Part shown: one piece after another, positions 15,472 to 63,853 of the stretch
Position numbering within the stretch: the stretch's first letter is position 1
How the letters are laid out: each line of letters begins with the position of its first letter
Assembly: GCA_050257555.1 (NCBI GenBank)
Contig: JBLMXB010000029.1
Coordinates: 7,174 to 71,173, forward strand
Length of the DNA stretch: 64,000 nt
Direction of reading: 5' to 3'
From: Hyphomicrobiales bacterium
Lineage (GTDB): Bacteria > Eisenbacteria > RBG-16-71-46 > SZUA-252
Translations under genes and position numbers: made by a program
Notes under the pieces: model-generated
What the model saw: only the letters and a program-made list of their open reading frames with translations
What the model was told of the DNA's origin: nothing
The model's database searches: none

Positions 15472-15475
<4 letters not shown>
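12986..15475 (-). CDS. bamA: Outer membrane protein assembly factor BamA (Omp85)
   Basis: This is the C-terminal 829 codons of ORF 12986..16960. It has a signal peptide, POTRA-like repeats (VIRAIRASGFRNVD…, VQSVEFEGAKKI…, KVRGIEIHGA…), an Omp85 barrel and the C-terminal HFQLGNTF. The TTG start at 15475 overlaps the clpC stop (TTGA). Confidence 0.85.
15329..15358. repeat. 15-bp tandem duplication inside the bamA signal-peptide coding region
   Basis: cgcgaccgcgaggca occurs at 15329-15343 and again at 15344-15358. It encodes ACLAV-ACLAV in the hydrophobic core of the signal peptide. Confidence 0.8.
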
Positions 15476-17889
<2,414 letters not shown>

Positions 17890-40976: not shown

Positions 40977-40991
40977 GCAACCAGTGTGCCA
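40977..40991 (-). promoter_or_regulatory. Sigma-54 (-24/-12) promoter candidate upstream of the HD-GYP/purM/activator operon
   Basis: The minus strand reads TGGCACACTGGTTGC (TGGCAC-N5-TTGC). It is intergenic and about 48 nt upstream of the ATG at 40929. Confidence 0.6.
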
Positions 40992-50457: not shown

Positions 50458-51252
50458 GTGACGACCGAACGACTCTGGCGCCCGCCGGCGGGAGCGCTTC
50501 CGCCCGCGACCGACTTCGCGGTCACGACCCGGCGCGGCGGCGCGAGCGCGGGCCCGTTCGCCACGCTCAACGTCGGCCTCGTGCCGGGCGAGCGCGAGGA
50601 GGCGGTCGCGGAGAACCGGCGCCGCGTGCGGGCCGATTTCGGCGCCGGCGAGCGGGAGCCTTTCCGCGTCCACCAGGTCCACGGCGACCGGATCGTTCCC
50701 GCCCGGTCCGCCGGCGACGCGCCGGGCCTCCGCGCCGACGGGCTCCTCCTCGACGGTCCGAGGCGCGACGCGACGACCCCGGGCGACGCCCGTATCCCCT
50801 GCGTCGCGGTCAGCGTCGCGGATTGCGCGCCGGTCGCGATCGTCGCCGAGGGAGCGCCGCTCGCGGCGCTCCTCCATTGCGGCTGGCGCGGCACCGTGGC
50901 CGGCATCGTGCCGCGCGCCGTCTCGCTCCTCGAGGCGCGCGGCGCGCGCGCCCGCGCGCTCCGCGCCGTCGTCGGCCCCTGCATCCACCCGTGCTGCTAT
51001 CCCGTGGGGCCGGACGTCGCGGCGCGGTTCCCCACGATCCACCTCGTGCCGCACGCGAGCGGCCGTCACGCGCTCGATCTCCCCGGCGCGATCGTCGCGA
51101 CCCTGCGCGCCGCCGGCGTCCCCGCGTCCCGCATCACGGTCGCCGGCGAGTGCACGTCCTGCCGGAGCGACCTCTTCTTCTCCCACCGGCGCGACCGCGG
51201 CGTCACGGGGCGCCACTGGGCGCTCCTTCGTCTGGGGCGCGCGCCCGCGTGA
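50458..51252 (+). CDS. pgeF: YfiH/PgeF-family (DUF152) purine nucleoside phosphorylase / peptidoglycan editing factor
   Basis: GTG at 50458. VTTRRGGASAGPFATLNVG, VHQVHGD, ADCAPV, HCGWRG and FFSHRRD are the family's conserved blocks. This is the only supported plus-strand gene. Confidence 0.8.
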   Translation: MTTERLWRPPAGALPPATDFAVTTRRGGASAGPFATLNVGLVPGEREEAVAENRRRVRADFGAGEREPFRVHQVHGDRIVPARSAGDAPGLRADGLLLDGPRRDATTPGDARIPCVAVSVADCAPVAIVAEGAPLAALLHCGWRGTVAGIVPRAVSLLEARGARARALRAVVGPCIHPCCYPVGPDVAARFPTIHLVPHASGRHALDLPGAIVATLRAAGVPASRITVAGECTSCRSDLFFSHRRDRGVTGRHWALLRLGRAPA

Positions 51253-51784
51253 GGGTGCGCACCAGACGCCGGTAGCCCTTCCGCCCGACGAAGCCGAGGA
51301 AGAGTCCGAGGATCGTCCCACCGAGCACGTCCGACGGCCAGTGGTCGCCGACGTAGATCCGCGACAGGGAGACCGCGCCCGCGACGACGTACGCCGCCAC
51401 CGTGATCTCCGGGAAGACCGCGGCGATCACGGGCGCGGCCGCGAAGAAGTTCGTCGCGTGCACCGAAGGGAACGAATAGCTGTGTCGGACCCCGAAGAGC
51501 GGGCGCGCGTCGGCGAGGACCACCGAGGGCCGGGCGCGCTTGAAGATCGGCTTCAGCACCTTGGCCGACGTCTGGTCCGAGATCGCGAGCGTGAGCGCCA
51601 GGACCACGAGGCCGATCGCGCCGCGGGCGCGGCGGAGGAGCGGGAAGCAGAGCCCGATCGCGACGAGAATCGGGATCTTGAATGCGCCGGGATCGGTCAG
51701 CGCGCGCATCACGGGATCGAGCCAGGCCTGGTGGCACCCGAGGTGGATGGCCCGGAAGACGGCCGTGTCCCACGCCTGCCCCAT
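51203..51784 (-). CDS. PAP2-family lipid phosphatase
   Basis: 193 aa membrane ORF with the tripartite PAP2 motif KPIFKRARP … SFPSVHA … SRIYVGDHWPSDV. It is 12 nt downstream of the giant OMP gene. Confidence 0.8.
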   Translation of the reverse strand: MGQAWDTAVFRAIHLGCHQAWLDPVMRALTDPGAFKIPILVAIGLCFPLLRRARGAIGLVVLALTLAISDQTSAKVLKPIFKRARPSVVLADARPLFGVRHSYSFPSVHATNFFAAAPVIAAVFPEITVAAYVVAGAVSLSRIYVGDHWPSDVLGGTILGLFLGFVGRKGYRRLVRTLTRARAPDEGAPSGAP

Positions 51785-51796
51785 CCGGGCTCCCGA

Positions 51797-54700
51797 TCAG
51801 AAGTCCGCGCCGAACGTCACGAAATTCTGCGGCCTTCCGACCCCGCCGTTCAATTTGAACTCCCGCCCGTAGTCGTAGCGGAGGATGAAGTAGCCGAGGT
51901 TGACGCGGGCGCCGAAGCCCCAGGCGAGGTGGAGGTTCTCCGTGTGGAGTCCGCCGGCGGTCGAGAAGAAGACCGGGTCCGTCCCCTTCTCCCACGCCGT
52001 CGCGCCGTCGAGGAACATCACCCCGTTGAAGCCGCCGAGGCCCAGGGAGAGCGGCCAGCCGAGCCGGAGCTGCTCGATCAGCGGGAAGCGGAACTCGAGG
52101 TTCCCGATCAGCGCCCGCGTCCCGACGAGGTCGCCGTAGTCGGCGCCGCGGTACGTGAACGCGCCGCCGAACCGGAAGAGCTGCGGATCCCGCCCCCACG
52201 AGCCGCCGGCGATCAGCCGCTGCGCGAGGGCGTACCGGTGGCGGATGTTGGTGTAGCGCCGCCAGTCGAGGATCCCCGTCGTGTAGTGCACGTCGCCGAT
52301 CGCGTGCTCGAGCGAGTACCGCGAGCGGCCGCCGTTGATCGGCCCCGTGGAGTTGTACAGCGTGTTGTCGGCCACGAGCCCGATGTTCGGCGCCACGTAG
52401 AAGAAGTCACCGTTGTTCTGGAGCGTCGAGATCGTCCCCAGGTCGTAGTTGTACTGGAGCACCCGCTCGCTGATCACCGCGGACGTGATGCCGTACTCGA
52501 ACCGCCGGAACCGGTTGAACGGACGCGCGAAGAAGATCGACCCGCCGCGGTAGATCTGGCTCTCCACGTTGTCGCTCGACGGCGCCGACAGGAGCAGGAG
52601 GTCGTTCCGGTACTGGAAGACCGCGAGGCCCCAGTTCGTCCGGTGCGCGAGGTTCGAGTACGCGAGGTAGATGTCCGACTGCGAGAGGTCGCCGTAGAGG
52701 TTCAGGACGGCCAGGATGTTCCGGTTGCCGAGCACGTCGCTGAACGAGATCACGCTCGAGCCCGCGAATCCGATGTTCGAGGCGAAGAGGGCGCCGCCGC
52801 TCACGTAGTCGCGCGAGAACTTCGCCTTGTACGGCAGGCGCACGAACGACGTGCTGTCGGCGAGCGGCTCGCGATAGACCTCCCGGATGTACGTGCCGAG
52901 CGTCGTGTCGATCACCGCCCCGCTCGAATCGGCCGGCGTCGCCGCCCGGACCCGGAGCGCCGCGGAGGTCGCGGCGCCGCCCGAGGCGCTGTCGGCGGCC
53001 GCGGAATCCGCGGGGGCGTCGCCGCCCGACGTCGCGACGGAATCGGCCGGGGCGGCGGGCGCCTCGTCCGGCGGGGCGGCGGGCGCCTCGTCCGGCGGGG
53101 CCGCGGCGAGCACCGACGGCATCAGCCCGCTCGATGCCTCCTGGGTGCCGAGCGGCGCAAGCGAGCCGATCGCCCCCGGCGCGAGGTCCTGGTCGGCCAG
53201 GATCATCGTGACCGGCGCGTTGATGAACTTCCGCGGCTCGCGCACCGAGTAGATGTCCCACCCGCCGCGCGTGAAGGCCGTGAAGAGGAGGCGCTTCCCG
53301 TCGGGGGAGAGCGAGATGCACGGCGCGTTCGGCACGAGCCCCGAGACGCCGTTCAGCAGGTTCGAGAGGCGGTAGGAGTCGGCCGTGGCCAGGTCGAGCC
53401 GGTAGATGTTCGGCGTCCCCGAGCGGTCGGAGACGAAGACCAGCGACTTGCCGTCGGGCGTCCACTGCGGGGAGAAGCTGGATCCGCTCTGCTTCGGCAG
53501 GACCCGGACCTCGCCCGTGGTCATGTCGTAGAGCGCGAGGCGGAGCTTGCCGAAGATCAGCCGCTCGGGCTCCGTCCCGGCGCCGCGGTCGGTCGTGAAC
53601 GCGATCGTCCCCCCGTCCGGCGACCAGGCAGGGTCGCGGTACGAGTACGGCCCGCCCGCGAGCTCGCGGAGATCCTTCCCGTCCGCGCCGGCGACGTAGA
53701 GCGCGGACATTCCGTTCTTGAGCCCGACGAACGCGATCCGTTTCCCGTCCGGCGACCAGGCCGGGGAGTAGATCGCGTCGAGCCCGAAGCGGAGCTTCCG
53801 CTCGATCTTCCCCGACGGGATCCCGATCACGTAGATCGCGTCCTCGGGGCCCGACTTGACCGGGAGCGCGATCTCCTTCTCGTCGGGCGCCCAGGCGATG
53901 GAGGAGTCGAAGTAACGGAGCGTCTCGTACGTGCCGGTCCGCTCCCCCGACACCAGCTTCTTGAACACCTTCCCGTCGAGGGCCGACGCGAGATAGACGT
54001 CGTTGTACATGCTCCGGTCGGAGATGAAGACCATCTGGAGCCCGGACGGCGACACGGCCGGCGCGACGTTGAAATCGGAGAGATCGTGCTCGGAGTCGGT
54101 CAGCTTCGAGGCGATCACGTCGGGCTTGTCGCTGTCCGCGATCTGCGGCAGGTACTGCTTGCGCACCGCCTCCTGCCACTTCTTGGAGAGCACGTCGACG
54201 GTCAGGCCGGTCGACGCCTCGAGCGCCCGCTCCGCGCTCCCCATCCGCTTCGTCCGTTTCAGGATCTCCCCGATCTTCTCGATCCCGTACGTGTCGGCGA
54301 TGAACTGCCAGATCGACTGGCCGAAGCGATAGACGCGGAGATCGCCGACGTACGACAGGACCCCGATCGGGATGAGGTACCCCTCGAGCGAGGCGTCGCG
54401 GAGCCACATCTGCGTGTTCGTGTCGATCTCGCCGACCGACAGGTACTCCGCCATCCCCTCCATGAACCACCCCGGCGGCGCGTTGGCGAAGGGGTTCGAG
54501 ACGAGACCGCCCCGGTCGCCGAAGAGGATGTCGACCTGGAACGCGTGCACCAGCTCGTGGGTCAGGACGTGGTCGAACTCCGCGAAGTCGCCGGTGAACG
54601 GCAGGAAGACCCGCCGCTTCAGGTACTCGGTGATCCCGCCCGTGCCGAGGCTGATCAGCTCCGGCGTGATGTTCGTCTGCTCGAAGTCGGAGTGGGACGC

Positions 54701-55024
54701 GTAGAGGACGAGCGGCACCCGCTCCCGGATGTCGTGGTGGAGCACGCGGCTCAGCCGGTCGTACGCGCGCTCGGCCATCAGCGCGGCGTCCTGCACCGCC
54801 GCCTCGGTCCCCGTGTAGTGGTAGATGTCGAAGTGCTGCGTGCGCAGCACCTTCCAGTTGAACTTCTTGTACTGGACCTTGTTCTGGCCGAACCACTGCG
54901 CCTCGGCGCGCGGCGGCGCCGCGGTCGCGAGGAGCGCGGCCAGCGCGAGGAGCACGACCCACGCGGCGCGGGCGCGTCCGCGGGGCGGACGGGACGGGAG
55001 CTGCCGGTCTCGCTGTCGCATCAT
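51797..55024 (-). CDS. Giant outer-membrane protein A: HExxH peptidase-like domain + TolB/PD40-like beta-propeller + Omp85-type beta-barrel
   Basis: 1075 aa ORF. It has a signal peptide (…ATAAPPRAEA), HELVHAF plus EGMAEY, repeated PAWSPDGKRIAF / PAWSPDGGTIAF / PQWTPDGKSLVF / LSPDGKRLLF, an Ala/Pro/Ser linker, a C-terminal barrel (LEFRFPL, FLDGATAW, GFGARVNLGYFILRYDYG) and a terminal F. Confidence 0.8.
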   Translation of the reverse strand: MMRQRDRQLPSRPPRGRARAAWVVLLALAALLATAAPPRAEAQWFGQNKVQYKKFNWKVLRTQHFDIYHYTGTEAAVQDAALMAERAYDRLSRVLHHDIRERVPLVLYASHSDFEQTNITPELISLGTGGITEYLKRRVFLPFTGDFAEFDHVLTHELVHAFQVDILFGDRGGLVSNPFANAPPGWFMEGMAEYLSVGEIDTNTQMWLRDASLEGYLIPIGVLSYVGDLRVYRFGQSIWQFIADTYGIEKIGEILKRTKRMGSAERALEASTGLTVDVLSKKWQEAVRKQYLPQIADSDKPDVIASKLTDSEHDLSDFNVAPAVSPSGLQMVFISDRSMYNDVYLASALDGKVFKKLVSGERTGTYETLRYFDSSIAWAPDEKEIALPVKSGPEDAIYVIGIPSGKIERKLRFGLDAIYSPAWSPDGKRIAFVGLKNGMSALYVAGADGKDLRELAGGPYSYRDPAWSPDGGTIAFTTDRGAGTEPERLIFGKLRLALYDMTTGEVRVLPKQSGSSFSPQWTPDGKSLVFVSDRSGTPNIYRLDLATADSYRLSNLLNGVSGLVPNAPCISLSPDGKRLLFTAFTRGGWDIYSVREPRKFINAPVTMILADQDLAPGAIGSLAPLGTQEASSGLMPSVLAAAPPDEAPAAPPDEAPAAPADSVATSGGDAPADSAAADSASGGAATSAALRVRAATPADSSGAVIDTTLGTYIREVYREPLADSTSFVRLPYKAKFSRDYVSGGALFASNIGFAGSSVISFSDVLGNRNILAVLNLYGDLSQSDIYLAYSNLAHRTNWGLAVFQYRNDLLLLSAPSSDNVESQIYRGGSIFFARPFNRFRRFEYGITSAVISERVLQYNYDLGTISTLQNNGDFFYVAPNIGLVADNTLYNSTGPINGGRSRYSLEHAIGDVHYTTGILDWRRYTNIRHRYALAQRLIAGGSWGRDPQLFRFGGAFTYRGADYGDLVGTRALIGNLEFRFPLIEQLRLGWPLSLGLGGFNGVMFLDGATAWEKGTDPVFFSTAGGLHTENLHLAWGFGARVNLGYFILRYDYGREFKLNGGVGRPQNFVTFGADF
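53049..53100. repeat. 24-bp tandem duplication (about 2.2 copies) in the linker of giant OMP A
   Basis: ggggcggcgggcgcctcgtccggc occurs at 53049-53072 and 53073-53096, followed by a partial third copy. It encodes PPDEAPAA twice. Confidence 0.85.
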
Positions 55025-56226
55025 GTCGTCGTCCCCTTCTCGGTGCCGGCCATCGCGAGACGCCCCGCCTCGTCGAGGGCGGCGGCGACGCTCGTCTCGG
55101 GAATCGCTCCCTGCGCGGACTCGGGCCGGCCGCCCCCCTTGGCCCCGTGCCGGCGGCAGAGATCGGCGAAGATCGCGCCTACCGCTATTGTACCCTTCGG
55201 CGCGGAAAAGTGCGCGCGGGCGCTCCCGCGCCCGGCGGCCAGGAGCGCGATCCCGCCGCGCGCCGCGATCGAGGCCGCCAACGGCGCGATCTCCGCGGGG
55301 TCGCGGTCCGGGAAGTGGCGGACCACGACCGGCCCGCGCGCCCCGGCGGGCGCGCCGGCCACCAGCGCCTCGGCTTCGCGCTCGAGCGCCTCCTTGAGGA
55401 GCGGCTTGAGGCGCGCCTCGAGGCGGCCCCGCTCCTCCCGGAGCCGCGCGATGGCGCGGGGAAGCTCGGCCTCGCCCGTCGTGAACTCGAGGCAGAGCCC
55501 CTTCAGCACCGACGTCGCGTCCCGGAGCCGGCGAAGCGCCCGTCCCCCGCAGGCGAACGGGATCCTCGTCCCTCCCTTGTACCGCTCGGCACCGAGGATC
55601 GTGACGATCCCGACGGCGCCCGAGCGGCGGACGTGGGTGCCGCCGCAGGCCGACCAGTCGAATGCGTCCACCTCGACGACCCGGACCTCCCCCTCCACGT
55701 CGGGCGGCTTCCGGAGCGGGAACGAGCGCGCCTGCTCGAGGCTCACGACGTGCGTGCGCACGTCCCGATCCTCCCAGACGATCTCGTTCGCGCGGTCCTC
55801 GACGCGCGCCAGGAGCGCCGCGTCGGGGCCGGGATGGTCGACGTCGATCGTCACGACGTCCTCCCCCAGGTGGAACGAGCGGGTGTCGGCCCGCGCCACG
55901 TCGACGAACGCGCGGGAGAGGATGTGCTGCCCGGTGTGCTGCTGCATGTGGTCGAAGCGGCGCGCCCAGTCGAGCGCGCCGGCCACCGGCGCTCCGGGCT
56001 CGAGCGCGCCGGCGACGACGTGCCAGATCGTCCCGTCCTCCTCGAGGACGTCCGTGACGGCGTGGCCGTCGAGCGTGCCGCGGTCGGAGGGCTGCCCCCC
56101 GCCGCCGGGGTAGAACGCGGTCGCGTCGAGGGCGACGCGCGTCGCCCCGCCGTCGGCGCGCGCCTCCCGGACGCGGGACTCGAAGGCGCGGAGCAGGGAA
56201 TCGTCGTAGTAGAGGCGCTGGGTCAA
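55021..56226 (-). CDS. alaX: AlaX-L-type alanyl-tRNA editing protein (tRNA_SAD + DHHA1-like)
   Basis: 401 aa ORF with a TTG start at 56226 (GAGGA upstream). The zinc/editing motifs are HTGQHIL and CGGTHV. The C-terminal GGGRPESAQG is typical of the AlaRS C-terminal module. Its stop overlaps the start of OMP A (ATGA). Confidence 0.8.
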   Translation of the reverse strand: MTQRLYYDDSLLRAFESRVREARADGGATRVALDATAFYPGGGGQPSDRGTLDGHAVTDVLEEDGTIWHVVAGALEPGAPVAGALDWARRFDHMQQHTGQHILSRAFVDVARADTRSFHLGEDVVTIDVDHPGPDAALLARVEDRANEIVWEDRDVRTHVVSLEQARSFPLRKPPDVEGEVRVVEVDAFDWSACGGTHVRRSGAVGIVTILGAERYKGGTRIPFACGGRALRRLRDATSVLKGLCLEFTTGEAELPRAIARLREERGRLEARLKPLLKEALEREAEALVAGAPAGARGPVVVRHFPDRDPAEIAPLAASIAARGGIALLAAGRGSARAHFSAPKGTIAVGAIFADLCRRHGAKGGGRPESAQGAIPETSVAAALDEAGRLAMAGTEKGTTT

Positions 56227-56278
56227 CCGAGTGGATCCTCGAACCGGGCGGCGGGGACGTTTCGTCGAGGATACAGGA

Positions 56279-56309
56279 GAGGCTCCCCGACGGGCAATCG
56301 GGGAGCCTC
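56279..56309 (-). terminator. Perfect 12-bp stem / 7-nt loop hairpin between the 165-aa gene and alaX (attenuator/terminator or RNA-stability element; no U tract)
   Basis: gaggctccccga (56279-56290) pairs with tcggggagcctc (56298-56309); the loop is cgggcaa. It lies 24 nt after the upstream stop and 53 nt before the alaX TTG. Confidence 0.4.
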
Positions 56310-56332
56310 GAAGCTTCGTGCGGCGGTCCGGG

Positions 56333-56830
56333 TCAGCGCGTCAGCGCCTCGTTCCGCTGCTCGACCAATTCGGCGATCGTCTCCGTGATGCCGCGGAGCT
56401 CCGCCAGCGTCATCTCGAACCGCTCGTCGTGGACGTACGCCTTCTCCAGCTCGTGCACGGTCGCGTGCAGCTGGTCGAGGGCCTCGACGATGCGGCGGTC
56501 GTAGCCCGACGCCGCGTCCACCGCGTCGTCGCTCAGCGCGCTCTTCTGCGCGGGCGACGCGAGCGGAATCGAGTCGGCCAGGAACTCCAGCTTCCGGGCC
56601 CCGGCGTCCACTTCCTCGAGCAGGTCGGAGTAGTCCTCTCCGAACTGATGGCTCTCGATGCGCTCGAGCCGGTGCGCCTCGCCGGCCAGATGCTCGGCGA
56701 TCGAATGGCGGAACCGGCGGTCGTCCTCGCGGCGCTGCGCCAGCTCCTGATATCCCTTGTAGCCCGGAACCCGGCGCGCGATTTCCTCGACGGCATCGAG
56801 CGTGGCGAGCTTCTGGCGGGTGCGTGGCAT
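56333..56830 (-). CDS. Hypothetical all-helical 165-aa protein
   Basis: ATG at 56830, with AGGAGGA beginning 15 nt upstream of it (8-nt spacer). The acidic, heptad-like sequence is …EEIARRVPGYKGYQELAQRREDDRRFRHSIAEHLAGEAHRLERIE…. The GTG at 56959 would add an Arg-rich extension, which I consider leader. Confidence 0.6.
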   Translation of the reverse strand: MPRTRQKLATLDAVEEIARRVPGYKGYQELAQRREDDRRFRHSIAEHLAGEAHRLERIESHQFGEDYSDLLEEVDAGARKLEFLADSIPLASPAQKSALSDDAVDAASGYDRRIVEALDQLHATVHELEKAYVHDERFEMTLAELRGITETIAELVEQRNEALTR

Positions 56831-57026
56831 TCGGTTCGTCCTCCTGATCCATGCAGAGTGCACGATTCCTCGCCGGTGCACGGCCTCGAGCGACATCACC
56901 GGTCGCCGCCCGGGCTCCGCCCCCCGCACCTTCCGGGTGGCGGTATCGACTTGAAGCACCGACAGATCCGTCCGAATCGCGGGCGCCGCGTCGCCGCGGC
57001 CTCCCCGCGCCCGGGGCCGGAGGTCT

Positions 57027-57041
57027 GCAACGCGTGTGCCA
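57027..57041 (-). promoter_or_regulatory. Sigma-54 (-24/-12) promoter candidate upstream of the 165-aa gene/alaX/OMP A/PAP2 unit
   Basis: The minus strand reads TGGCACACGCGTTGC(A), i.e. TGGCAC-N5-TTGCA. It is 18 nt after the stop of the lipoprotein gene. The predicted leader to the ATG at 56830 is about 185 nt. Confidence 0.6.
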
Positions 57042-57058
57042 TTCCGCCCTCGCGCCCC

Positions 57059-58381
57059 TCACGGGCGGTACGTCACCAGCCGGTACGGTCCGCCGAGGAG
57101 CGCCGATCTCCGAAGCACGACCCCCGCCGGCGAGACCTCGAGGAGGCGGTCGGACTCGAGATCCGCCACCCAGCAGGTGCCCGTGGCCGGGTCGAGCGAG
57201 AGCCCGTACGGTTCGATGCCGGTCAGGGTCGCCTGGATCTGCCCGCCGAGCGCCACGCGCGTGAGCCGCCCGCTCCCGGCCCCCGGCGCGCCGCGCTCGC
57301 TCACCCAGAGCGAGCGGGTCGCGGGATCCACCGCGAGATCGACGACGCCGATCCGCCCGGTCGTGACCGGCGTGCCCGGGTCGGGATCGCCGGCGACCAC
57401 GTAGTAGAGGTCGAAGAGGTTCGGCGCCGAATGCGAGGCGACCCACGCGGCGTCCGCCGCCTCGTCCACCGCGATCGCCACCACGCCGCCCGGGAGCTGC
57501 CACGAGTTCCGGTGCGTGCCGTCGCCGCTCGACGCCTGCACGACGAGCCCCTCCTGCGTTCCCACCCAGACCGTCGCGTTCGCGTTGTCCGTCGCGACCG
57601 CGACCGGATGCTGCCCCGCGACCGACACCGTCGCCGCCGACGTCGGCTGCGTCGTGTCGGGCAGGAAGCTGACCACCTGTCCCACGTCGTACCGCGTGAC
57701 CCAGGCCAGGCCCCGCTGCGTGCTCACCGAGAGCGTGCTCGGGCCGAGCACGTCGATCGTCGGCCCGACGGTCGTGCCGTCGAACCGGCGGCGCTCGACC
57801 GCGTCGAGGTCGTAGTGGCTGAGCCAGAACCAGCCGCGGACGGGATCGAGCGCGACGTCGTCGTACGCGTCCTTCGACGCGATCGTGTAGAAGAGGTCGC
57901 GCGCGTCGGCCGTCAGCGCCGCGTACCCCGGCGGGTCGATGGTCAGCGCCGCGAGGCGGAGCGTGCCCGGCGTCGCCGTGTCGGGCGCGCTCGCCGCGCT
58001 GTCCCCGGTCGCGAAGACCGCGATCAACCGGTAGACGTACGTCGAGTCGTTCGCGACGTCGAAGTCCTCGGTCGCGCCGACGGTCGCCGGGAAGATCGCG
58101 CCGGGCAGGAGGAGCGGCGTCCCCCCCGGCCGCCACCGCTGCACGTGGTAGCCCTCCACGCCGTCGAGGGTGAGGATCGGCCAGCGGAGCTCGACGACGC
58201 CGTCGGACGCGAGCGCGTCGAATCCGACGAGCATCCCATGCGTCGTCCGGTTCCGCGGATCGAGCGGGTTGTCGCGGGCGCGCTTCGCGCAGCCGCCGGC
58301 CAGCGCGGCGAGGAGGAGCGCCAGGACCGCGGCGGCCGCGACGGCGGAGCCGGGACGGCGCGGCGGGGTCACGCGGTCCAC
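57059..58381 (-). CDS. Lipoprotein with Ig/FN3-like domain and NHL/beta-propeller-like repeats
   Basis: 440 aa ORF with a GTG start at 58381. The lipobox is LAALAGGC. Repeated …WV(A/T/S)… blades are present (GLAWVTRYD, ATVWVGTQEG, DAAWVASHS, RSLWVSERG, GTCWVADLES). Confidence 0.6.
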   Translation of the reverse strand: MDRVTPPRRPGSAVAAAAVLALLLAALAGGCAKRARDNPLDPRNRTTHGMLVGFDALASDGVVELRWPILTLDGVEGYHVQRWRPGGTPLLLPGAIFPATVGATEDFDVANDSTYVYRLIAVFATGDSAASAPDTATPGTLRLAALTIDPPGYAALTADARDLFYTIASKDAYDDVALDPVRGWFWLSHYDLDAVERRRFDGTTVGPTIDVLGPSTLSVSTQRGLAWVTRYDVGQVVSFLPDTTQPTSAATVSVAGQHPVAVATDNANATVWVGTQEGLVVQASSGDGTHRNSWQLPGGVVAIAVDEAADAAWVASHSAPNLFDLYYVVAGDPDPGTPVTTGRIGVVDLAVDPATRSLWVSERGAPGAGSGRLTRVALGGQIQATLTGIEPYGLSLDPATGTCWVADLESDRLLEVSPAGVVLRRSALLGGPYRLVTYRP

Positions 58382-58385
58382 GCGG

Positions 58386-59252
58386 TCAATGGGCCCCCAG
58401 CACGAGGAGGAAGAGCCCCGTCGTGAGGAGCACCTGACCGGTTCCGAGCGACGTCCCCGCGAGCCGGTCGAAGTGCGTCGTGCGGTCGTAGTAGTACGGG
58501 ATCCGGTCCGGGTCCGACGACGTCTCGTACCGCGCGTACCAGCGATCGGCCTCCTTCCTTAGGAGCGCGGCCGAGCCGGTGAGCGCGGCCCCCACCCCGA
58601 TCACCGCGATCGAGACCCAGCGCTTCTTGAGGAGCGGCGGCGCGCGGGGCGGCGGCGGCGGCAGGTGCGGGGCGACGCGCCGGAGGGAGACCGTGACCGG
58701 TCCGGCGTCCGCGCTCGCGAGCTCGAGGAGCTCGGTGCCCGCGACGGTGGTGTCCGCGTGCTCCGGCGCCTCGAGGCGGAGCGCGCGCCGCTCGAGCCAG
58801 CCCGGGCGGAGCGAGAGCGGCGTGACGCCGACGAGCGAATCGCCGGGCGCGCCGCCGCCCGCCGAACCGCCGGCGCGGCTCCAGATCGAGGCGGGCTCCG
58901 GGTCGCTCCGGAGGAGGACCGACGGGCGGAGGTCAAGGACGACCGTGCGCGCGTCGCCCGGCGCCGGCGTGACGATCGCGGCGTCGCGTCCCGTGTCGAA
59001 GACGCGCGGATCCTCGGGGATCGCCTGGACGCGGATCGGCTTCGCGGCGACCCAGAGCGGCCCGACCGGCGACCGTCCCGCCTTCACGCCGTCGATGAGG
59101 ACGAGGAGCCCCGGCGGGAGCGTCTCGACCCGCAGCGTCGCGGTGGCGGAGTCGGCCCGGGCCACGTCGGGCTGGATCGGGGAGCCCGCGAAGGCGCGCG
59201 CTCCCCCGAGGCACGGAGCCGCCGCCACGAGCGCGGCCGCTCCGAGTCGCAA
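58386..59252 (-). CDS. PEGA-domain protein with C-terminal membrane anchor
   Basis: 288 aa ORF with a TTG start at 59252 and a signal peptide. The PEGA-like segments are LRVETLPPGLLVLIDGVKAGRSPVG and LLRSDPEPASIW…LVGVTPLSL. A Pro-rich spacer precedes TM helices (WVSIAVIGVGAALTGSAALL; VLLTTGLFLLVLG). Confidence 0.6.
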   Translation of the reverse strand: MRLGAAALVAAAPCLGGARAFAGSPIQPDVARADSATATLRVETLPPGLLVLIDGVKAGRSPVGPLWVAAKPIRVQAIPEDPRVFDTGRDAAIVTPAPGDARTVVLDLRPSVLLRSDPEPASIWSRAGGSAGGGAPGDSLVGVTPLSLRPGWLERRALRLEAPEHADTTVAGTELLELASADAGPVTVSLRRVAPHLPPPPPRAPPLLKKRWVSIAVIGVGAALTGSAALLRKEADRWYARYETSSDPDRIPYYYDRTTHFDRLAGTSLGTGQVLLTTGLFLLVLGAH

Positions 59253-59280
59253 GGCCCGTCCGTAGGCCGGACGCTTCGTC

Positions 59281-62088
59281 CTAGTAGTCGAATCCGATGT
59301 AGAACTCCCGGTGCCAGCCCGGCTCGACCGTATGGAAATTGGTCCGTCTCGCGAAATCGTACCGCAGCACGAGGTAGCCGCCGAGGCTCATGCGGAGCCC
59401 GACCCCGAAGCTCCCCTTCGGCTTCGGGATGCTCTCGAACTTCTCCCAGGCGTTTCCCGCGTCCACGAACGTCGCGCCCTCGAGCCCCGGAAGCTGCAGG
59501 CCGCGGAACGGGACGCCGAGGGTCAGGTTCTCGAAGAGGGGGAAGCGGTACTCCGCGTTCGCGAGATAGACGCGGGTGCCGTAGATGCTCCGGCGCTCGT
59601 AGCCGCGGAGCGAATGCGTGCCGCCCATCACGAACCGCTCGGGGTCGGCGCCGTTCGACATCCGCCCTTGGAGCCGGACCGCGAAGCTGGTCCACTGGCT
59701 CACGCGGAAGTAGCGCCGGAGATCGGCGCTCAGCGTCAGGTTCTCGGCGCGCCCCGTGTTCCAGTTCGTCGTCAGCATGGTCGTCAGGTTGTAGCGGGAA
59801 CCGTCGCGCGGCCCCGTCGCGAACCAGAGCGTGTTGTCGCGGATCAGGGAGATCGAGTGGCTGGTGAGGAATCCCTCGCGGAGCGTCCCGTCCTCCCGCT
59901 CCTTCTGATCGTAGAACGCCTGGGCCGTCCCCTCGATCCGGCTGTAGCGCGAGAACGGGTACGATGCGACGAGCGATCCGCCGGCCCGCCGCTCGAAGTA
60001 GTCGAAGCCGAGCGCGTCGATGTAGTCCCCCGCCAGGTGGAACCCGCCGACGCCGTAGTTCCAGCGGTGCTGCCGGTTCACGAACCAGAGGCCGGCGTTC
60101 ATGCGCGAGAGGATGTCGCCGGCGGTCTGGGCGGTGTTCCCCACCTCGAACACGTACGTCTTGTTCCCGAGCAGGTCGCTGAACGCGCCGACCACGCCCT
60201 CGCCCAGGTTCTCGTTCGGGTTGAAGGAGAGCCCGCCGGAGACGAGGTCGAGCCCGTACCGCGGCTCGTACGGCTCGGGCTTCTCCTGCGACTTCGCGAG
60301 CGCCTCCTCCCAGCCCCAGCGCGGCGGGTTCGACTCGAGCACCAGGGAGAAGGAGTCGGCCTCGGCCGGCGCGTCGGACACGGACATCTGGTAGATCCCG
60401 AAGCCCTGCTTCCGGAATCCGGTGAAGAGGAGGCTCTTTCCGTCGGGCGTCCACGCCGGGTCGAGGGCCGTGCCGAGGAGCCGGCCGACGCGCGCCCCCT
60501 CCCCGTTCGGGTCGACGGCGTAGAGGTTGAAGCCGCCGTCCCGGTCGGACGCGAACGCGATCCGCTTCCCGTCCGGGGACCACGTCGGCGACTGGTCGAT
60601 CCAGGGACCGCACGTGAGGTACCGGATCTCGCCGCTCTCGAGCGTGAGGAGGAAGAGGTTCAGGTGTCCGTCCTCGCCGTACCGCGTGCGGTCCGACGAG
60701 AAGACGATCTCCTTCCCGTCGGGCGACCAGGAGGGATCGTTGTCGGTGTAGTCGTCGTTCGTGAGCCGCGTCACGGTGTCGGTGCCGGGCTCGAAGACGT
60801 AGAGATCCGACCGCCCCGCCGGAGTCACGCCGGAGAACGCGATCTTGGATCCGTCGTGCGACCAGGCCGGCGACGCGAGCGACACGAGCCCCTCGAAGTG
60901 GCGCTTCAGCGTGATGTCCTTCGTCGCGAGGTCCATCACGAAGAGCGCGTCGCTCCCGTTCCACTTGGAGACGAACGCGACCTCGCCGGCGCGCGAGACG
61001 TCGATCCGGCTCTGGAAGGGATGGAACGACTCGAACTGCGCGGTGCGCTGGCCCCGGACCACCGACTTCACGTCGCGCTCGCGCCCCTCGTAGGAGGCGC
61101 TGTAGATGTTCGTGTAGCCGCTCCGCGCGGAGAGGAAGAGGTAGCGGTCGCCGCCCAGGATCGTCGAGTCGGGCACGGCGACCGGCTTCAGGTTCACGCC
61201 CTGCGAGACGGCCCGCTCCTGCGCGGCGAGGGTGAGCGACACGTGGTCCTTCACGTCCGGGAAGTACTTCCGCTTCAGCGCGTAGATCCAGTCCTCCGAC
61301 AGGCGCCGGGTCGGCGTGCCGGTGACGCGCGCGAGGAGCTTGTCGAACCGGTCCTCCTTGTAGATGTCCGTGTAGAGCCGGCGGAGGGCGTCCTGACCGT
61401 ACGTCTCGCCGATGTACTGGCAGAGCGACTGGCCGAGCTTGTAGATCGTGAACGTCCCGTCGTACCGCCAGAGCTCGCTGATCGGCGGGATCTGTCCCTC
61501 GAGCACCATGTCGGAGAGGACCATGGTCCCCTGCGCGTCCCACTCCGACGACCAGTACTCGGCGAGACCCTCCGAGAACCAGAGCGGCGGGATCAGGTAC
61601 GTGCTCCGGCGGTGCTCCTTGTAGACCTGGTCGAGGATGTCGAACTGGAACACGTGCACCATCTCGTGATGGATCACGTGCCGGAATTCCGCGTACGACC
61701 CGGTGTACGGCAGGACGACCCGCCCCTTCAGGTACTCCGTGAACCCCTGCACGCCCTCCGGCATCGAGTACGGGCTCACGTTGTTCTGCTCGAAGTGGAC
61801 GTGGGAGGCGAAGACGATCATCGGCACGGAGTGCTTCACCTGGTGCTGGAACTTCACGGCCAGGTCCGCGTAGCTCTCCTCGGCGAGCGTGAGCGCGAGC
61901 CGCGCGAGCGGCTCCTCCTCGGGGTAGTAGAAGATCTCGACGTGCTCGCCGCGGAGGGTGAGCCAGTCGAACGATTCGTACTGCACCTTGTTCTTGCCGA
62001 AGGCGTAGTACTGCGCGGCGGCGGGCGTGGCCACGGCGAGGAGACCCACCGCGAGGAGACCGACGAGGTGCTGGATCGTTTTCTTCAT
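59281..62088 (-). CDS. Giant outer-membrane protein B (paralog of A): HExxH peptidase-like domain + TolB/PD40-like beta-propeller + Omp85-type beta-barrel
   Basis: 935 aa ORF. It has a signal peptide (MKKTIQHLVGLLAVGLLAVATPAAA), HHEMVHVF plus SEGLAEYWS, repeated PAWSHDGSKIAF / PSWSPDGKEIVF / PTWSPDGKRIAF / PAWTPDGKSLLF, a C-terminal barrel (SLRGYERRSIYG, AEYRFPL, FVDAGNAW, GVGLRMSLGGYLVLRYDF) and a terminal Y. Confidence 0.82.
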   Translation of the reverse strand: MKKTIQHLVGLLAVGLLAVATPAAAQYYAFGKNKVQYESFDWLTLRGEHVEIFYYPEEEPLARLALTLAEESYADLAVKFQHQVKHSVPMIVFASHVHFEQNNVSPYSMPEGVQGFTEYLKGRVVLPYTGSYAEFRHVIHHEMVHVFQFDILDQVYKEHRRSTYLIPPLWFSEGLAEYWSSEWDAQGTMVLSDMVLEGQIPPISELWRYDGTFTIYKLGQSLCQYIGETYGQDALRRLYTDIYKEDRFDKLLARVTGTPTRRLSEDWIYALKRKYFPDVKDHVSLTLAAQERAVSQGVNLKPVAVPDSTILGGDRYLFLSARSGYTNIYSASYEGRERDVKSVVRGQRTAQFESFHPFQSRIDVSRAGEVAFVSKWNGSDALFVMDLATKDITLKRHFEGLVSLASPAWSHDGSKIAFSGVTPAGRSDLYVFEPGTDTVTRLTNDDYTDNDPSWSPDGKEIVFSSDRTRYGEDGHLNLFLLTLESGEIRYLTCGPWIDQSPTWSPDGKRIAFASDRDGGFNLYAVDPNGEGARVGRLLGTALDPAWTPDGKSLLFTGFRKQGFGIYQMSVSDAPAEADSFSLVLESNPPRWGWEEALAKSQEKPEPYEPRYGLDLVSGGLSFNPNENLGEGVVGAFSDLLGNKTYVFEVGNTAQTAGDILSRMNAGLWFVNRQHRWNYGVGGFHLAGDYIDALGFDYFERRAGGSLVASYPFSRYSRIEGTAQAFYDQKEREDGTLREGFLTSHSISLIRDNTLWFATGPRDGSRYNLTTMLTTNWNTGRAENLTLSADLRRYFRVSQWTSFAVRLQGRMSNGADPERFVMGGTHSLRGYERRSIYGTRVYLANAEYRFPLFENLTLGVPFRGLQLPGLEGATFVDAGNAWEKFESIPKPKGSFGVGLRMSLGGYLVLRYDFARRTNFHTVEPGWHREFYIGFDY

Positions 62089-62150
62089 TCAGAGCGGCCT
62101 TCGGATGAGTCCGCCCGGCGAGACGACGACAGGGAGGGTACGTGCATACA

Positions 62151-62179
62151 ATTGTACCAACGGCGCGCTCGAACGACAA
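62151..62179 (-). promoter_or_regulatory. Sigma-70-type promoter candidate for the OMP B/PEGA/lipoprotein unit, with the -10 inside a 10-bp palindrome
   Basis: The minus strand reads TTGTCG-N17-TACAAT, about 63 nt upstream of the ATG at 62088. The -10 is part of the perfect palindrome TACAATTGTA (62147-62156), which is conspicuously AT-rich for this window. Confidence 0.5.
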
Positions 62180-62200: not shown

Positions 62201-63853
62201 CTACTTTTCCAGCATTTCGCGCGTCCCGGCCACCCAGACGCCGCGCACCCGGACCCGATGCCACGATTCGACCGGCGTGGCGGCGAGATCGTGGTCGAAT
62301 AGAGCCACGTCGGCCCCGTATCCGGGCGCGAGACGCCCGAGCGGGGTCCTCCAGCCGGCCAGGAGGTGCGGCGTCTCGAGGTGCGCGCGGAGCGCCTGGG
62401 CCAGCGTGAGCCGCTGCTCGGGGTGGAACGCGCGCTCCTCCCCGTCGCCGCCGGCGCGCCTGAGGAGCGCGGCCTGGAGCGCGAGCAAGGGACCCGCGCG
62501 GTCGAACGGCGCGTCCGAGCCGAGCGCGAGGCGGGCGCCCGCGCCGAGGAGCCGGCGGTACGCGTACGAACGCTCGGTGCGCGCGCCCCAGTGGCGCCGC
62601 GCCACGTCGCGGTCGGTGACGAGGTGGATCGGCTGGACGGACGCCACGGCGCCGAGCGCGCGGAAGCGCTCGAGGTCCGCGACGCCCGCGAGCTGCACGT
62701 GCTCGACGCGCGGCGGGTACGGGTACGCGCGCCCGCGTCCGAGCGGCGTCGCGATCGCGTCGAGCGCGTGGCGCACCGCGCGGTCGCCGATCGCGTGGAT
62801 CGCCACGGAGAGCCCGCTCTCGGCGGCGCGATCGCACGCGATCGCCATCGCCTCGCGGCTCGTCACCTCGATCCCCGCCGCGTCGCTCCCCTCGTACGGG
62901 GCGTCGAGGAGCGCCGTCGCGGAGCCGAGCGTTCCGTCGGCGAACATCTTCACGGGTCCGATCCGGAGCCGCTCGCTCCCCGCGCCGCTCCGCAAACCGA
63001 GGGCGGCGGCGTGCTCGAGCGACGCCACCGGAACCGAGAGGAGGAGCCGGAAGCCGAGATCGCCATCGCGGTCGAGGTCGTGCGCGGCGCGCCACGTCGT
63101 CGCGCGATCGAAATCGTGCGCGCTCGTGATCCCGAGCCCGCGCGCGCGCGCGAACGCGCGCCGGAGCGTGTCGCGCGGGTCCTCCCCGTGGTCCACGCGC
63201 GACCGGATCAGGTTCGCGGCGTCCTCGATCAGGACGCCGGTCAGCACGCCGTCGCGATCGCGCTCGATGACGCCGCCCGAGGGCGCCACCGTGCGCTCGT
63301 CGATGCCGGCGCGCGCGAGCGCGGCGCCGTTCGCCCAGACGGAGTGGCCGTCGACGGCGTAGAGGACGAGCGGCCGGTCGGGCGCGATCCGGTCGAGGGT
63401 CGCGCGCCCGCGCCGCCCGAGCGGCCACTCGCGCGGCACCCAGCCGCGGAGCACGATCCAGCCGCCGCCGCGCGCGGCGGGCGAGCGCGTCGCCGCGGCG
63501 CGCTCGATCGCCTCGGGCGTCTGCGCCTCGATCCACGGCTGGTCGAGCGCCCGCACCCATGTCACGAGGTGGATGTGCGCGTCCGTGAACCCGGGCGTGA
63601 GCGTACCGCCCTTGAGGTCGACCGGCTCCGCGGTGCGGCCCGCGCGCCGCCGGAGAAGGGAGAGCGGCCCGACGGCGGCGATGCGGTCCCCCTTCACCCA
63701 GACCGCCTCCTTCGGCGCGCGCGGCGCCCCTTCGCCCGGACGGGGGAGCCGCACGGCGCGCGCGGCGTCGAGGAGGCGGCCGTTCCAGAAGAGGGTCTCG
63801 CCCGCGGCGCGCGAGCGGGGCCGCGGCGCCTCGCGGCGCGCCGGGGCGGTCAT
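62201..63853 (-). CDS. Amidohydrolase-family metal-dependent hydrolase (YtcJ/Amidohydro_3-like)
   Basis: 550 aa ORF with FTDAHIHL (HxH metal site), AIHAIGD and GSDAP motifs. Confidence 0.8.
   Translation of the reverse strand: MTAPARREAPRPRSRAAGETLFWNGRLLDAARAVRLPRPGEGAPRAPKEAVWVKGDRIAAVGPLSLLRRRAGRTAEPVDLKGGTLTPGFTDAHIHLVTWVRALDQPWIEAQTPEAIERAAATRSPAARGGGWIVLRGWVPREWPLGRRGRATLDRIAPDRPLVLYAVDGHSVWANGAALARAGIDERTVAPSGGVIERDRDGVLTGVLIEDAANLIRSRVDHGEDPRDTLRRAFARARGLGITSAHDFDRATTWRAAHDLDRDGDLGFRLLLSVPVASLEHAAALGLRSGAGSERLRIGPVKMFADGTLGSATALLDAPYEGSDAAGIEVTSREAMAIACDRAAESGLSVAIHAIGDRAVRHALDAIATPLGRGRAYPYPPRVEHVQLAGVADLERFRALGAVASVQPIHLVTDRDVARRHWGARTERSYAYRRLLGAGARLALGSDAPFDRAGPLLALQAALLRRAGGDGEERAFHPEQRLTLAQALRAHLETPHLLAGWRTPLGRLAPGYGADVALFDHDLAATPVESWHRVRVRGVWVAGTREMLEK

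Follow-up and report, generated by a model that had tools for sequence, protein, structure and literature searches.

The 64,000-nucleotide stretch of contig JBLMXB010000029.1 analyzed here (hereafter, the window) carries two genes for very large proteins, designated ParA and ParB, each of which joins a peptidase-like domain, a beta-propeller, and an Omp85-type barrel in one polypeptide. The question raised by this locus is whether the two proteins and the genes around them constitute a single dedicated envelope machine, as was proposed in a preliminary description of the sequence, or whether the conserved unit is smaller, and what such a unit might do. The eight-gene "machine" proved to be mostly local synteny, and the useful new lead is a smaller operon of the ParB type. 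The two proteins and the parts of ParB are as follows (aa, amino acids).

59281–62088, minus strand: ParB, 935 aa, WD40-Omp85 protein of the operon-linked type
51797–55024, minus strand: ParA, 1075 aa, WD40-Omp85 protein of the type found elsewhere without ParB or its partner genes alongside
ParB aa 1–25: signal peptide
ParB aa ~26–290: gluzincin-like domain
ParB aa ~290–570: six-bladed TolB-like propeller
ParB aa ~611–935 (59284–60258, minus strand): 16-stranded Omp85 barrel, C-terminus ...GFDY

Both open reading frames (ORFs) were present as they had been described, and their relationship as paralogs was borne out by BLASTP, with 36% identity over the N-terminal 570 aa (E = 9e-98) and 34% identity over the C-terminal 337 aa (E = 1e-34). 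This similarity is far above chance, and ParA and ParB are true paralogs; a third copy was sought in the window and was not found. Both proteins consist of a signal peptide, a gluzincin-type domain with an HExxH...E motif, a six-bladed TolB-like propeller, and a 16-stranded Omp85 barrel lacking polypeptide-transport-associated (POTRA) domains, so that the three-domain reading of the preliminary description (MA-clan peptidase-like, TolB/PD40, and Omp85 barrel) was correct for both. Of the profiles named there, PD40 was above the cut-off in both proteins (four matches in each in the Pfam search, E = 2e-31), Omp85 was above the cut-off in ParB (PF01103, 45.8 bits vs. a cut-off of 24, covering aa 703–913) and sub-threshold in ParA (NCBIfam Omp85_fam, 33 bits), and Peptidase_MA_2 remained below the cut-off. 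The ParA barrel nevertheless aligns to the ParB barrel over the C-terminal region given above. Sub-threshold matches to BSP, M9, or flagellinolysin profiles were also obtained for ParA and ParB.

The full-length AlphaFold2 model of ParB (mean predicted local distance difference test score, pLDDT, 83; predicted template modeling score, pTM, 0.79) comprised, according to DSSP, a helical N-domain, 24 propeller strands forming six four-stranded blades, and 16 barrel strands (aa ~611–933). The Foldseek search of this model against the PDB returned TolB first (E ~1e-11), followed by BamA/TamA barrels (E = 1e-9 to 1e-8), with target template modeling (TM) scores of 0.57–0.68 for entries consisting of the barrel only, and tricorn (1k32) was a match of the propeller. 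Structure prediction and fold search for ParB recovered both the Omp85-type barrel and the metallopeptidase fold anticipated earlier, and a sequence search of the PDB with full-length ParB returned only TolB-type and S9 peptidase propellers, with no match to the barrel or the peptidase. The barrel of ParB has the loop-6 motif R828-G829-Y830 and the strand-13 motif F874-V-D876-A-G878; among 39 aligned homologs including ParA, R828 and D876 were invariant and G829 and Y830 were conserved in at least 90%. The corresponding motifs of ParA are the variants RGA and FLDGA, and its C-terminus is ...GADF. The final residue was aromatic in nearly all full-length family members sampled.

POTRA domains were sought in ParA and ParB with PF07244 and PF08479 (E ≤ 0.01) without a match, and no beta-alpha-alpha-beta-beta unit was seen in aa 570–630 of the ParB model; the same kind of search gave five POTRA matches in the canonical BamA encoded at 12986–15475 (minus strand). 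Because POTRA matches are absent, the proteins are not BamA, TamA, or TpsB, though NCBI names them "BamA/TamA family", and membership in BamA/TamA was rejected, in agreement with the preliminary description. It should be noted that immediately upstream of the canonical BamA gene (829 aa; five POTRA domains and an Omp85 barrel), and overlapping it by 4 nt, is a ClpB/ClpC-type AAA+ gene (15472–17889, minus strand).

The architecture itself has a place in the literature. In the subdivision of the Omp85/TpsB superfamily proposed by Heinz and Lithgow (2014; Front Microbiol 5:370, PMC4104836), one subfamily is named "WD40-Omp85", or "WD40-like". In the main text of that paper, the TolB-like propeller is described and WD40-Omp85 is likened to a BamA-BamB fusion; PF01103 together with repeated PF07676 is given for this subfamily in its Table S2; and Table S3 contains about 95 accessions with Phyre2 best hits to BamA (4k3b or 4c00) and TolB (2w8b or 2ivz), as well as a "best aminopeptidase hit" (1z5h F3, 4ar1 ColH, 4kxd, or 3qnf ERAP1). 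The aminopeptidase/collagenase templates 4ar1 and 1z5h are the same proteins as those matched by the N-domain of ParB in Foldseek (see below). Several accessions of Table S3 appear to derive from the same genome, and the genera represented there would include Rhodothermus, Salinibacter, Gemmatimonas, Cytophaga, and Anaeromyxobacter. ParA and ParB share with this subfamily PF01103 with PF07676 repeats, the lack of POTRA, and the structural templates; on the basis of this identical domain composition and these templates, they are members of the WD40-Omp85 subfamily, and their architecture does not differ from it. Thus, the architecture was already catalogued in 2014, and the window adds nothing new to it. 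The earlier statement that no characterized system has this composition holds insofar as no experimentally characterized match was found, but not for the architecture as such. The main text of PMC4104836 contains no discussion of the peptidase domain, of two ancient types, or of the partner operon. The "Metallo" Omp85 subfamily of the same paper was rejected as a candidate, since the domain that defines it, PF00149 (Metallophos), is another one. Hanson et al. (2024) still listed the metalloprotease, WD40-like, and patatin-like Omp85 subfamilies as not well characterized and called them intriguing. The family is large: the N-domain profile search retrieved 9112 cluster representatives at E ≤ 1e-3, 3752 at ≤ 1e-10, and 1219 at ≤ 1e-30, mostly 900–1100 aa long, from sources including KSB1, WOR-3/TA06, Marinimicrobia, and Eiseniibacteriota. 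Their annotation is generic ("BamA/TamA family", "PD40 domain-containing", "peptidase MA family metallohydrolase"), and precomputed Pfam Tricorn_N and Tricorn_2nd matches are listed for the WD40-Omp85 family.

The N-terminal module contains the following motifs.

61654–61668, minus strand: ParB HEMVH, predicted zinc-binding/catalytic motif (H141, E142, H145)
61570–61572, minus strand: ParB E173, putative third zinc ligand, in WFSEGLAEY
54545–54559, minus strand: ParA HELVH; third-ligand motif WFMEGMAEY
61975–62013, minus strand: ParB FG-x-NK-[VI]-x-Y...W motif, aa 26–38
54886–54921, minus strand: ParA FG-x-NK-[VI]-x-Y...W motif

Residues H141, E142, H145, and E173 were invariant in the 39 aligned homologs. 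In four samples of the family, all 447 full-length members had HExxH, and at least 94% also had the third-ligand motif, which follows HExxH at a fixed distance of 26–29 residues (27 in ParB). The M9 collagenase ColG has a comparable spacing between HExxH and the third ligand. Many relatives carry precomputed PF13485 matches. A separate model of the ParB N-domain (aa 24–300; pLDDT 77, with two disordered loops) matched in Foldseek the peptidase domains of M9 collagenases (clostridial and Grimontia (Vibrio)), M1 aminopeptidases, and one M61 enzyme with a probability of 1.0 (E from 5e-6; query TM 0.46–0.55); the top matches were 7zoc, 4arf, 4ar1 (ColH), 1z1w (F3), IRAP, and PepN, and ColG, ColT, and ERAP were also found. 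The invariance of the motif and the fold matches bear out the earlier reading of an intact HExxH with EG[ML]AEY in an MA-clan metallopeptidase-like fold, and the universal retention of the catalytic zinc motif makes it likely that the proteins act as enzymes. The most conserved stretch in the family is the FG-x-NK-[VI]-x-Y...W motif near the mature N-terminus, which was found in 436 of the 447 members; its residues G31, N33, K34, Y37, and W42 were invariant in the 39 homologs, and it lies 2–5 residues past the predicted signal-peptide cleavage site. Despite this conservation, the stretch is predicted to be disordered in the ParB model (pLDDT < 50).

The genes that accompany ParB outside its close relatives are those immediately downstream of it. 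In the window, they are the following.

58386–59252, minus strand: PEGA/hairpin partner protein, 288 aa
58398–58607, minus strand: C-terminal hairpin of this protein (two transmembrane (TM) segments joined by a loop), aa ~216–285
57059–58381, minus strand: lipoprotein partner, 440 aa
58235–58291, minus strand: lipoprotein tether motif CAKRARDNPLDPRNRTTHG, directly after the lipobox Cys

The ParB-type loci inspected outside the close clade had the following composition.

L030, L031, L034, L035 (Eisenbacteria): ParB-type, PQQ_2, hairpin/PEGA, and lipoprotein genes
L036 (KSB1): ParB-type, PQQ_2, hairpin/PEGA, and lipoprotein genes
L037 (Fidelibacterota, complete genome CP070787): the same four genes, with overlapping junctions
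L038 (Calditrichia): three of the four operon genes, the last being replaced by a gene for a GWxTD protein

In all of these loci (L030, L031, L034–L038), a BamB-family PQQ_2 gene directly followed the Omp85 gene (E = 2e-35 in L037), and it was followed by a gene for a small protein and then, Calditrichia excepted, by one for a protein of about 410–485 aa. In L035, the PQQ propeller and the PEGA/hairpin protein are fused into one 640-aa protein, which supports a functional link between them. The 288-aa partner in the window has a signal peptide and PEGA domain(s) (Pfam PEGA, 21.8 bits), and its hairpin region matched in BLASTP the second or third operon gene of Eisenbacteria, KSB1, Fidelibacterota, and Calditrichia (E = 1e-4 to 2e-11). 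Across phyla, it is the hairpin that is kept, the PEGA domains being optional and absent from short versions. The 440-aa lipoprotein has the lipobox LAGGC, the tether motif, an fn3-like region, and an NHL/SGL-like propeller with a weak SGL match; fn3 and NHL matches were found in its relatives, and it matched the last operon gene of Fidelibacterota (E = 8e-18) and KSB1 (E = 2e-11). The tether, C-x2-R-x3-NP[LF]DPxN-x2-T-x-G, occurred in 33 of the 40 sources, with carriers in Eisenbacteria, KSB1, and Fidelibacterota; it may serve for docking, sorting, or cleavage. Searches of Pfam, NCBIfam, and the PDB gave no significant match for the hairpin region or the lipoprotein, and no description of the ParB-type operon was found in the literature searched. 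The deeply conserved unit is a small operon around the ParB type, which occurs complete in Eisenbacteria, KSB1, and Fidelibacterota and with three of its members in Calditrichia.

The operon-linked proteins of other phyla scored far higher to ParB than to ParA, whereas the Marinimicrobia protein P0413 and the TA06 protein P0400 scored higher to ParA than to ParB; because of this separation of scores, the ParA/ParB split is considered older than these phyla. Elsewhere, ParA-type genes occur apart from ParB and its partners. Orthologs of ParA at 48–49% identity (L032, 7493–9909; L033, 7441–9842) have different neighbors and lie among glycan-related genes, with the glycan-synthesis genes YfhO, GT2, sulfatase, and PMT around them. 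These ParA-type genes are preceded by genes for a lipoprotein (about 393–395 aa, no family match) and a protein resembling an outer-membrane protein (about 405–412 aa, weak OMP_b-brl match); this pair, which is absent from the window, could represent partners of the ParA type, and the neighborhood of the Marinimicrobia ParA-type gene contained no conserved partners. In ParA itself, the propeller and the barrel are separated by a low-complexity linker of about 130 aa rich in Ala, Pro, Asp, and Ser (52835–53227, minus strand), which contains a 24-nt tandem repeat (53048–53106, minus strand) encoding PPDEAPAA 2.5 times. Since the lengths of ParA orthologs vary from about 1003 to 1161 aa, the linker suggests a variable tether between propeller and barrel.

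What, then, might the ParB-type unit do? The explanation we favor, and which we regard as about evenly balanced between right and wrong, is an outer-membrane-anchored metallopeptidase complex facing the periplasm, in which ParB acts together with its operon partners; the folds, the paralogy, and the conservation of motifs and operon are shown, and its topology, activity, composition, and substrates are inferred. The C-terminal 16-stranded barrel would be the outer-membrane anchor, and the N-terminal module would be a zinc metallopeptidase of the gluzincin type, with M9 collagenase and M1 aminopeptidase as the nearest folds and proteolysis as its presumed activity. The TolB-like propeller, by analogy with known propeller peptidases, may restrict the access of polypeptides to the active site, present substrates, and/or dock partner proteins. 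In tricorn, dipeptidyl peptidase IV (DPP-IV), and prolyl-oligopeptidase-type enzymes, propellers limit access to the active site. ParB would be the catalytic membrane-anchored core, with the TM-hairpin/PEGA protein, the NPLDPxN lipoprotein, and mostly also a BamB-like PQQ propeller as partners, and the substrates would probably be proteins or peptides of the envelope, perhaps with the cognate lipoprotein among them. The peptidase-propeller module would stay in the periplasm, since every Omp85 protein studied so far has the barrel N-terminus on that side; among them is PlpD, whose enzyme domain is exclusively periplasmic, with the barrel as a scaffold (PMC11116518).

Several known systems resemble parts of this arrangement. 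PlpD of Pseudomonas aeruginosa (type Vd) likewise has an enzyme domain N-terminal to an Omp85 barrel; however, it is a homodimeric patatin lipase with one POTRA domain, whereas the proteins in the window have a metallopeptidase and a propeller and no POTRA, and type Vd (PlpD-like) membership was rejected, as neither patatin nor POTRA was matched in ParA or ParB. The machinery that assembles beta-barrels (BAM) with BamB and BepA (M48) also combines an Omp85 barrel, a PQQ-type propeller, and a zinc metalloprotease on the inner side of the outer membrane, but as separate proteins, BamA having five POTRA domains and BepA tetratricopeptide repeats, whereas in the present proteins one polypeptide holds the barrel together with the protease and a TolB-type propeller. 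Beta-propeller and peptidase also occur together in tricorn with its F3 aminopeptidase, DPP-IV, prolyl oligopeptidase, and acylaminoacyl peptidase; these enzymes differ in being soluble, without a membrane barrel, and in being serine peptidases, except for F3 (zinc, M1). TolB of the Tol-Pal system, with its six-bladed PD40 propeller, is the best structural and sequence match of the middle domain, but it has an N-terminal alpha/beta domain that is lacking in ParA and ParB, and membership in Tol-Pal TolB was rejected (TIGR02800, 130 and 145 bits vs. a cut-off of 343, with only the propeller part aligned).

A number of observations weigh against the periplasmic metallopeptidase complex. The placement of the module in the periplasm is by analogy only. 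The Peptidase_MA_2 profile (PF13485) scored 25.5 and 19.4 bits for the two proteins vs. a cut-off of 32.4, and the search of the PDB with the N-domain profile gave only a marginal match to collagenase 7esi (HEYVH...WWSEGIAEY aligned to HExxH...WFSEGLAEY, E = 0.046), for which reason a fold search was required to place this domain. The loop-6 and strand-13 motifs, which are important in BamA, are intact in ParB, so the barrel could do more than anchor. The conserved loop of the hairpin would be cytoplasmic if the partner protein resides in the inner membrane, which an outer-membrane protease does not explain. A PQQ/BamB-like gene was sought in the 64-kb window and in 29 close loci and was not found; with this partner absent from the window locus and its close relatives, either the complex differs here or the gene is located elsewhere in the genome. 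Finally, literature searches for Omp85 with PD40, WD40, metallopeptidase, PEGA, or BamB, and for Eisenbacteria, yielded no functional study.

Among the alternatives, type V-like surface display or secretion, in which the barrel would export the peptidase-propeller passenger for degradation of external proteins as nutrients or for surface remodeling, appears unlikely; it comes near the idea of the preliminary description. For a long time, Omp85-enzyme fusions were believed to be exported (Heinz and Lithgow 2014), the nearest peptidase folds are those of secreted collagenases, and the flexible linker of about 130 aa in ParA would suit such a passenger. However, PlpD, the prototype of enzyme-Omp85 fusions, keeps its enzyme domain periplasmic (PMC11116518), no POTRA domain is present, and about 550 aa of folded peptidase and propeller would need to pass through a 16-stranded barrel. 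The lipoprotein and the hairpin membrane protein as partners also fit a periplasmic complex better.

The same operon could be taken for a dedicated assembly or export machine for its own lipoprotein, similar to two-partner systems, in which the tether is recognized and the lipoprotein is inserted, flipped, or cleaved with the BamB-like protein as an accessory. The invariance of the tether right after the lipidated Cys across three phyla, the BamB-family partner (PQQ_2, at the E-value given above for L037), the intact loop-6 RGY and strand-13 FxDxG motifs of ParB, and the tight coupling of the genes, with overlapping junctions in L037, are in line with such a machine. Pure transport, however, does not need a strictly conserved HExxH...E, there is no POTRA domain for handling the substrate, ParA-type proteins without such a partner have the same architecture, and recognition does not follow from conservation of a motif alone; we consider this reading improbable. 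Quite improbable is its extended form, according to which a hitherto undescribed four-component outer-membrane machine is conserved across the phyla of the FCB (Fibrobacteres–Chlorobi–Bacteroidetes) group, with the Omp85 protein recognizing its cognate tether and exporting the lipoprotein to the surface and/or cutting it free (a lipoprotein-specific "two-partner" exporter or sheddase).

The suggestion of Heinz and Lithgow (PMC4104836) that such proteins are akin to a "BamA-BamB fusion" would make ParB a BAM-like scaffold and its peptidase-like domain a non-catalytic binding module, to which the sub-threshold Pfam peptidase scores would correspond. This is very unlikely, as hundreds of divergent family members have kept every catalytic and zinc-ligand residue, and such residues are usually lost from pseudo-enzymes.

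There remains the larger block in which both paralogs lie. The best related loci belong to Eisenbacteria metagenome-assembled genomes (identity up to 88%), which places the window in a Candidatus Eisenbacteria genome (FCB group); its G+C content is about 72%. Eight genes, all on the minus strand, lie in the interval 51.2–63.9 kb; in addition to the four described above, these are the following.

62201–63853, minus strand: Amidohydro_3 family protein (amidohydrolase), 550 aa, upstream of ParB
56333–56959, minus strand: small helical protein, 208 aa in the listed ORF (GTG start at 56959), or 165 aa as 56333–56830
55021–56226, minus strand: AlaX-type alanyl-tRNA editing protein, 401 aa
51203–51784, minus strand: PAP2 lipid phosphatase, 193 aa

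The signals found between these genes are as follows.

62151–62179, minus strand: sigma-70-like promoter TTGTCG-17-TACAAT with an upstream TG (1 site found vs. 0.3 expected; consensus match only)
57027–57041, minus strand: sigma-54 −24/−12 element TGGCACACGCGTTGC, exact consensus, between the lipoprotein and helical-protein genes
56279–56309, minus strand: 13-bp perfect hairpin, terminator-like without a U-tract, just 3' of the stop codon of the small helical gene

The PEGA, lipobox propeller-like, sigma-54-driven small helical, AlaX, and PAP2 neighbors reported earlier were all confirmed. The genes are indeed co-directional; short or overlapping junctions, which had been claimed for the whole block, were found for some of them (ParB/PEGA, 28 nt; PEGA/lipoprotein, 4 nt; ParA/PAP2, 12 nt; a 4-nt overlap of the AlaX stop codon with the ParA start), whereas three intergenic gaps are about 100 nt or larger. 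Promoter or hairpin signals are present in two of these gaps, and the amidohydrolase–ParB gap of 112 nt holds the sigma-70-like promoter. A strict scan of 51–64 kb for intrinsic terminators found none. The pattern TGGCA[CT]-N5-TTGC occurred in the same intergenic gap, with 0–1 mismatch, in 20 of 20 related loci examined. The window contains two exact sigma-54 consensus matches, the second being TGGCACACTGGTTGC at 40977–40991 (minus strand).

In close relatives (ParB 67–88% identical), the order amidohydrolase-ParB-PEGA-lipoprotein-helical-AlaX-ParA-PAP2 was identical wherever the locus reached, which is weak evidence for functional linkage because the clade is narrow. In Eisenbacteria with a ParB ortholog 41–46% identical, ParB and the genes just downstream are kept and the flanks are unrelated, and in other phyla, likewise, only ParB and its immediate downstream genes occur together. 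The paralog pair is not kept with the PEGA, lipoprotein, and PAP2 genes beyond the close clade, so that the idea of the whole block as one dedicated machine, put forward in the preliminary description, did not withstand the survey of neighborhoods, and its "surface-remodeling or substrate-capture machine" is speculation. AlaX (AlaXM profile, E = 1e-46; also tRNA_SAD and DHHA1) is a standard cytoplasmic tRNA-editing enzyme and only a syntenic neighbor; neither it nor the small helical protein has a signal peptide. The latter probably has 165 aa, judging from the ATG at 56830 with its GGAGGA Shine–Dalgarno sequence and from homologs that align from residue ~38–44 of the listed ORF, the GTG start at 56959 then being wrong; it had no family match in Pfam, NCBIfam, and PDB searches, its gene is absent from distant loci, and it is a syntenic neighbor, not part of an envelope module. 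The PAP2 protein (Pfam, E = 5e-21) resembles undecaprenyl-diphosphatase or PgpB, with NCBIfam matches below the cut-off; its adjacency to ParA exists only in the close clade and is absent beside distant ParA orthologs, and the position of the amidohydrolase upstream of ParB is also kept only in the close clade. Thus, the amidohydrolase, helical protein, AlaX, and PAP2 are syntenic neighbors in one Eisenbacteria clade and not machine parts.

Because the order is lost in distant loci, some members are cytoplasmic, and an internal sigma-54 promoter, a hairpin, and a sigma-70-like promoter are present, the block is best read as three units, namely, ParB-PEGA-lipoprotein, the sigma-54-driven small gene, and AlaX-ParA-PAP2. 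That the eight genes from amidohydrolase to PAP2 form one co-regulated envelope machine around both paralogs is highly improbable and largely refuted by the synteny survey: their common direction, their constant order in all long loci of close relatives, and the tight AlaX/ParA (4-nt overlap) and ParA/PAP2 (12 nt) junctions are outweighed by the loss of this order in more distant loci (43–49% identity) and other phyla, by the cytoplasmic nature of AlaX and the helical protein, and by the conserved internal sigma-54 promoter, the hairpin, and the separate sigma-70-like promoter for ParB.

WD40-Omp85 is among the few large Omp85 branches without a known function. The data presented here provide three handles on it: the existence of two ancient family types, one of which is accompanied by the same partner genes in at least three or four phyla; the retention of the catalytic zinc motif throughout the family, which points to a likely enzymatic role; and two invariant peptides, one near the lipid anchor of the partner lipoprotein and the other, FGxNKxxY, at the mature N-terminus of the Omp85 proteins. 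If the complex does process or export envelope proteins, a new kind of Omp85 function would join insertion (BamA/TamA) and two-partner secretion.

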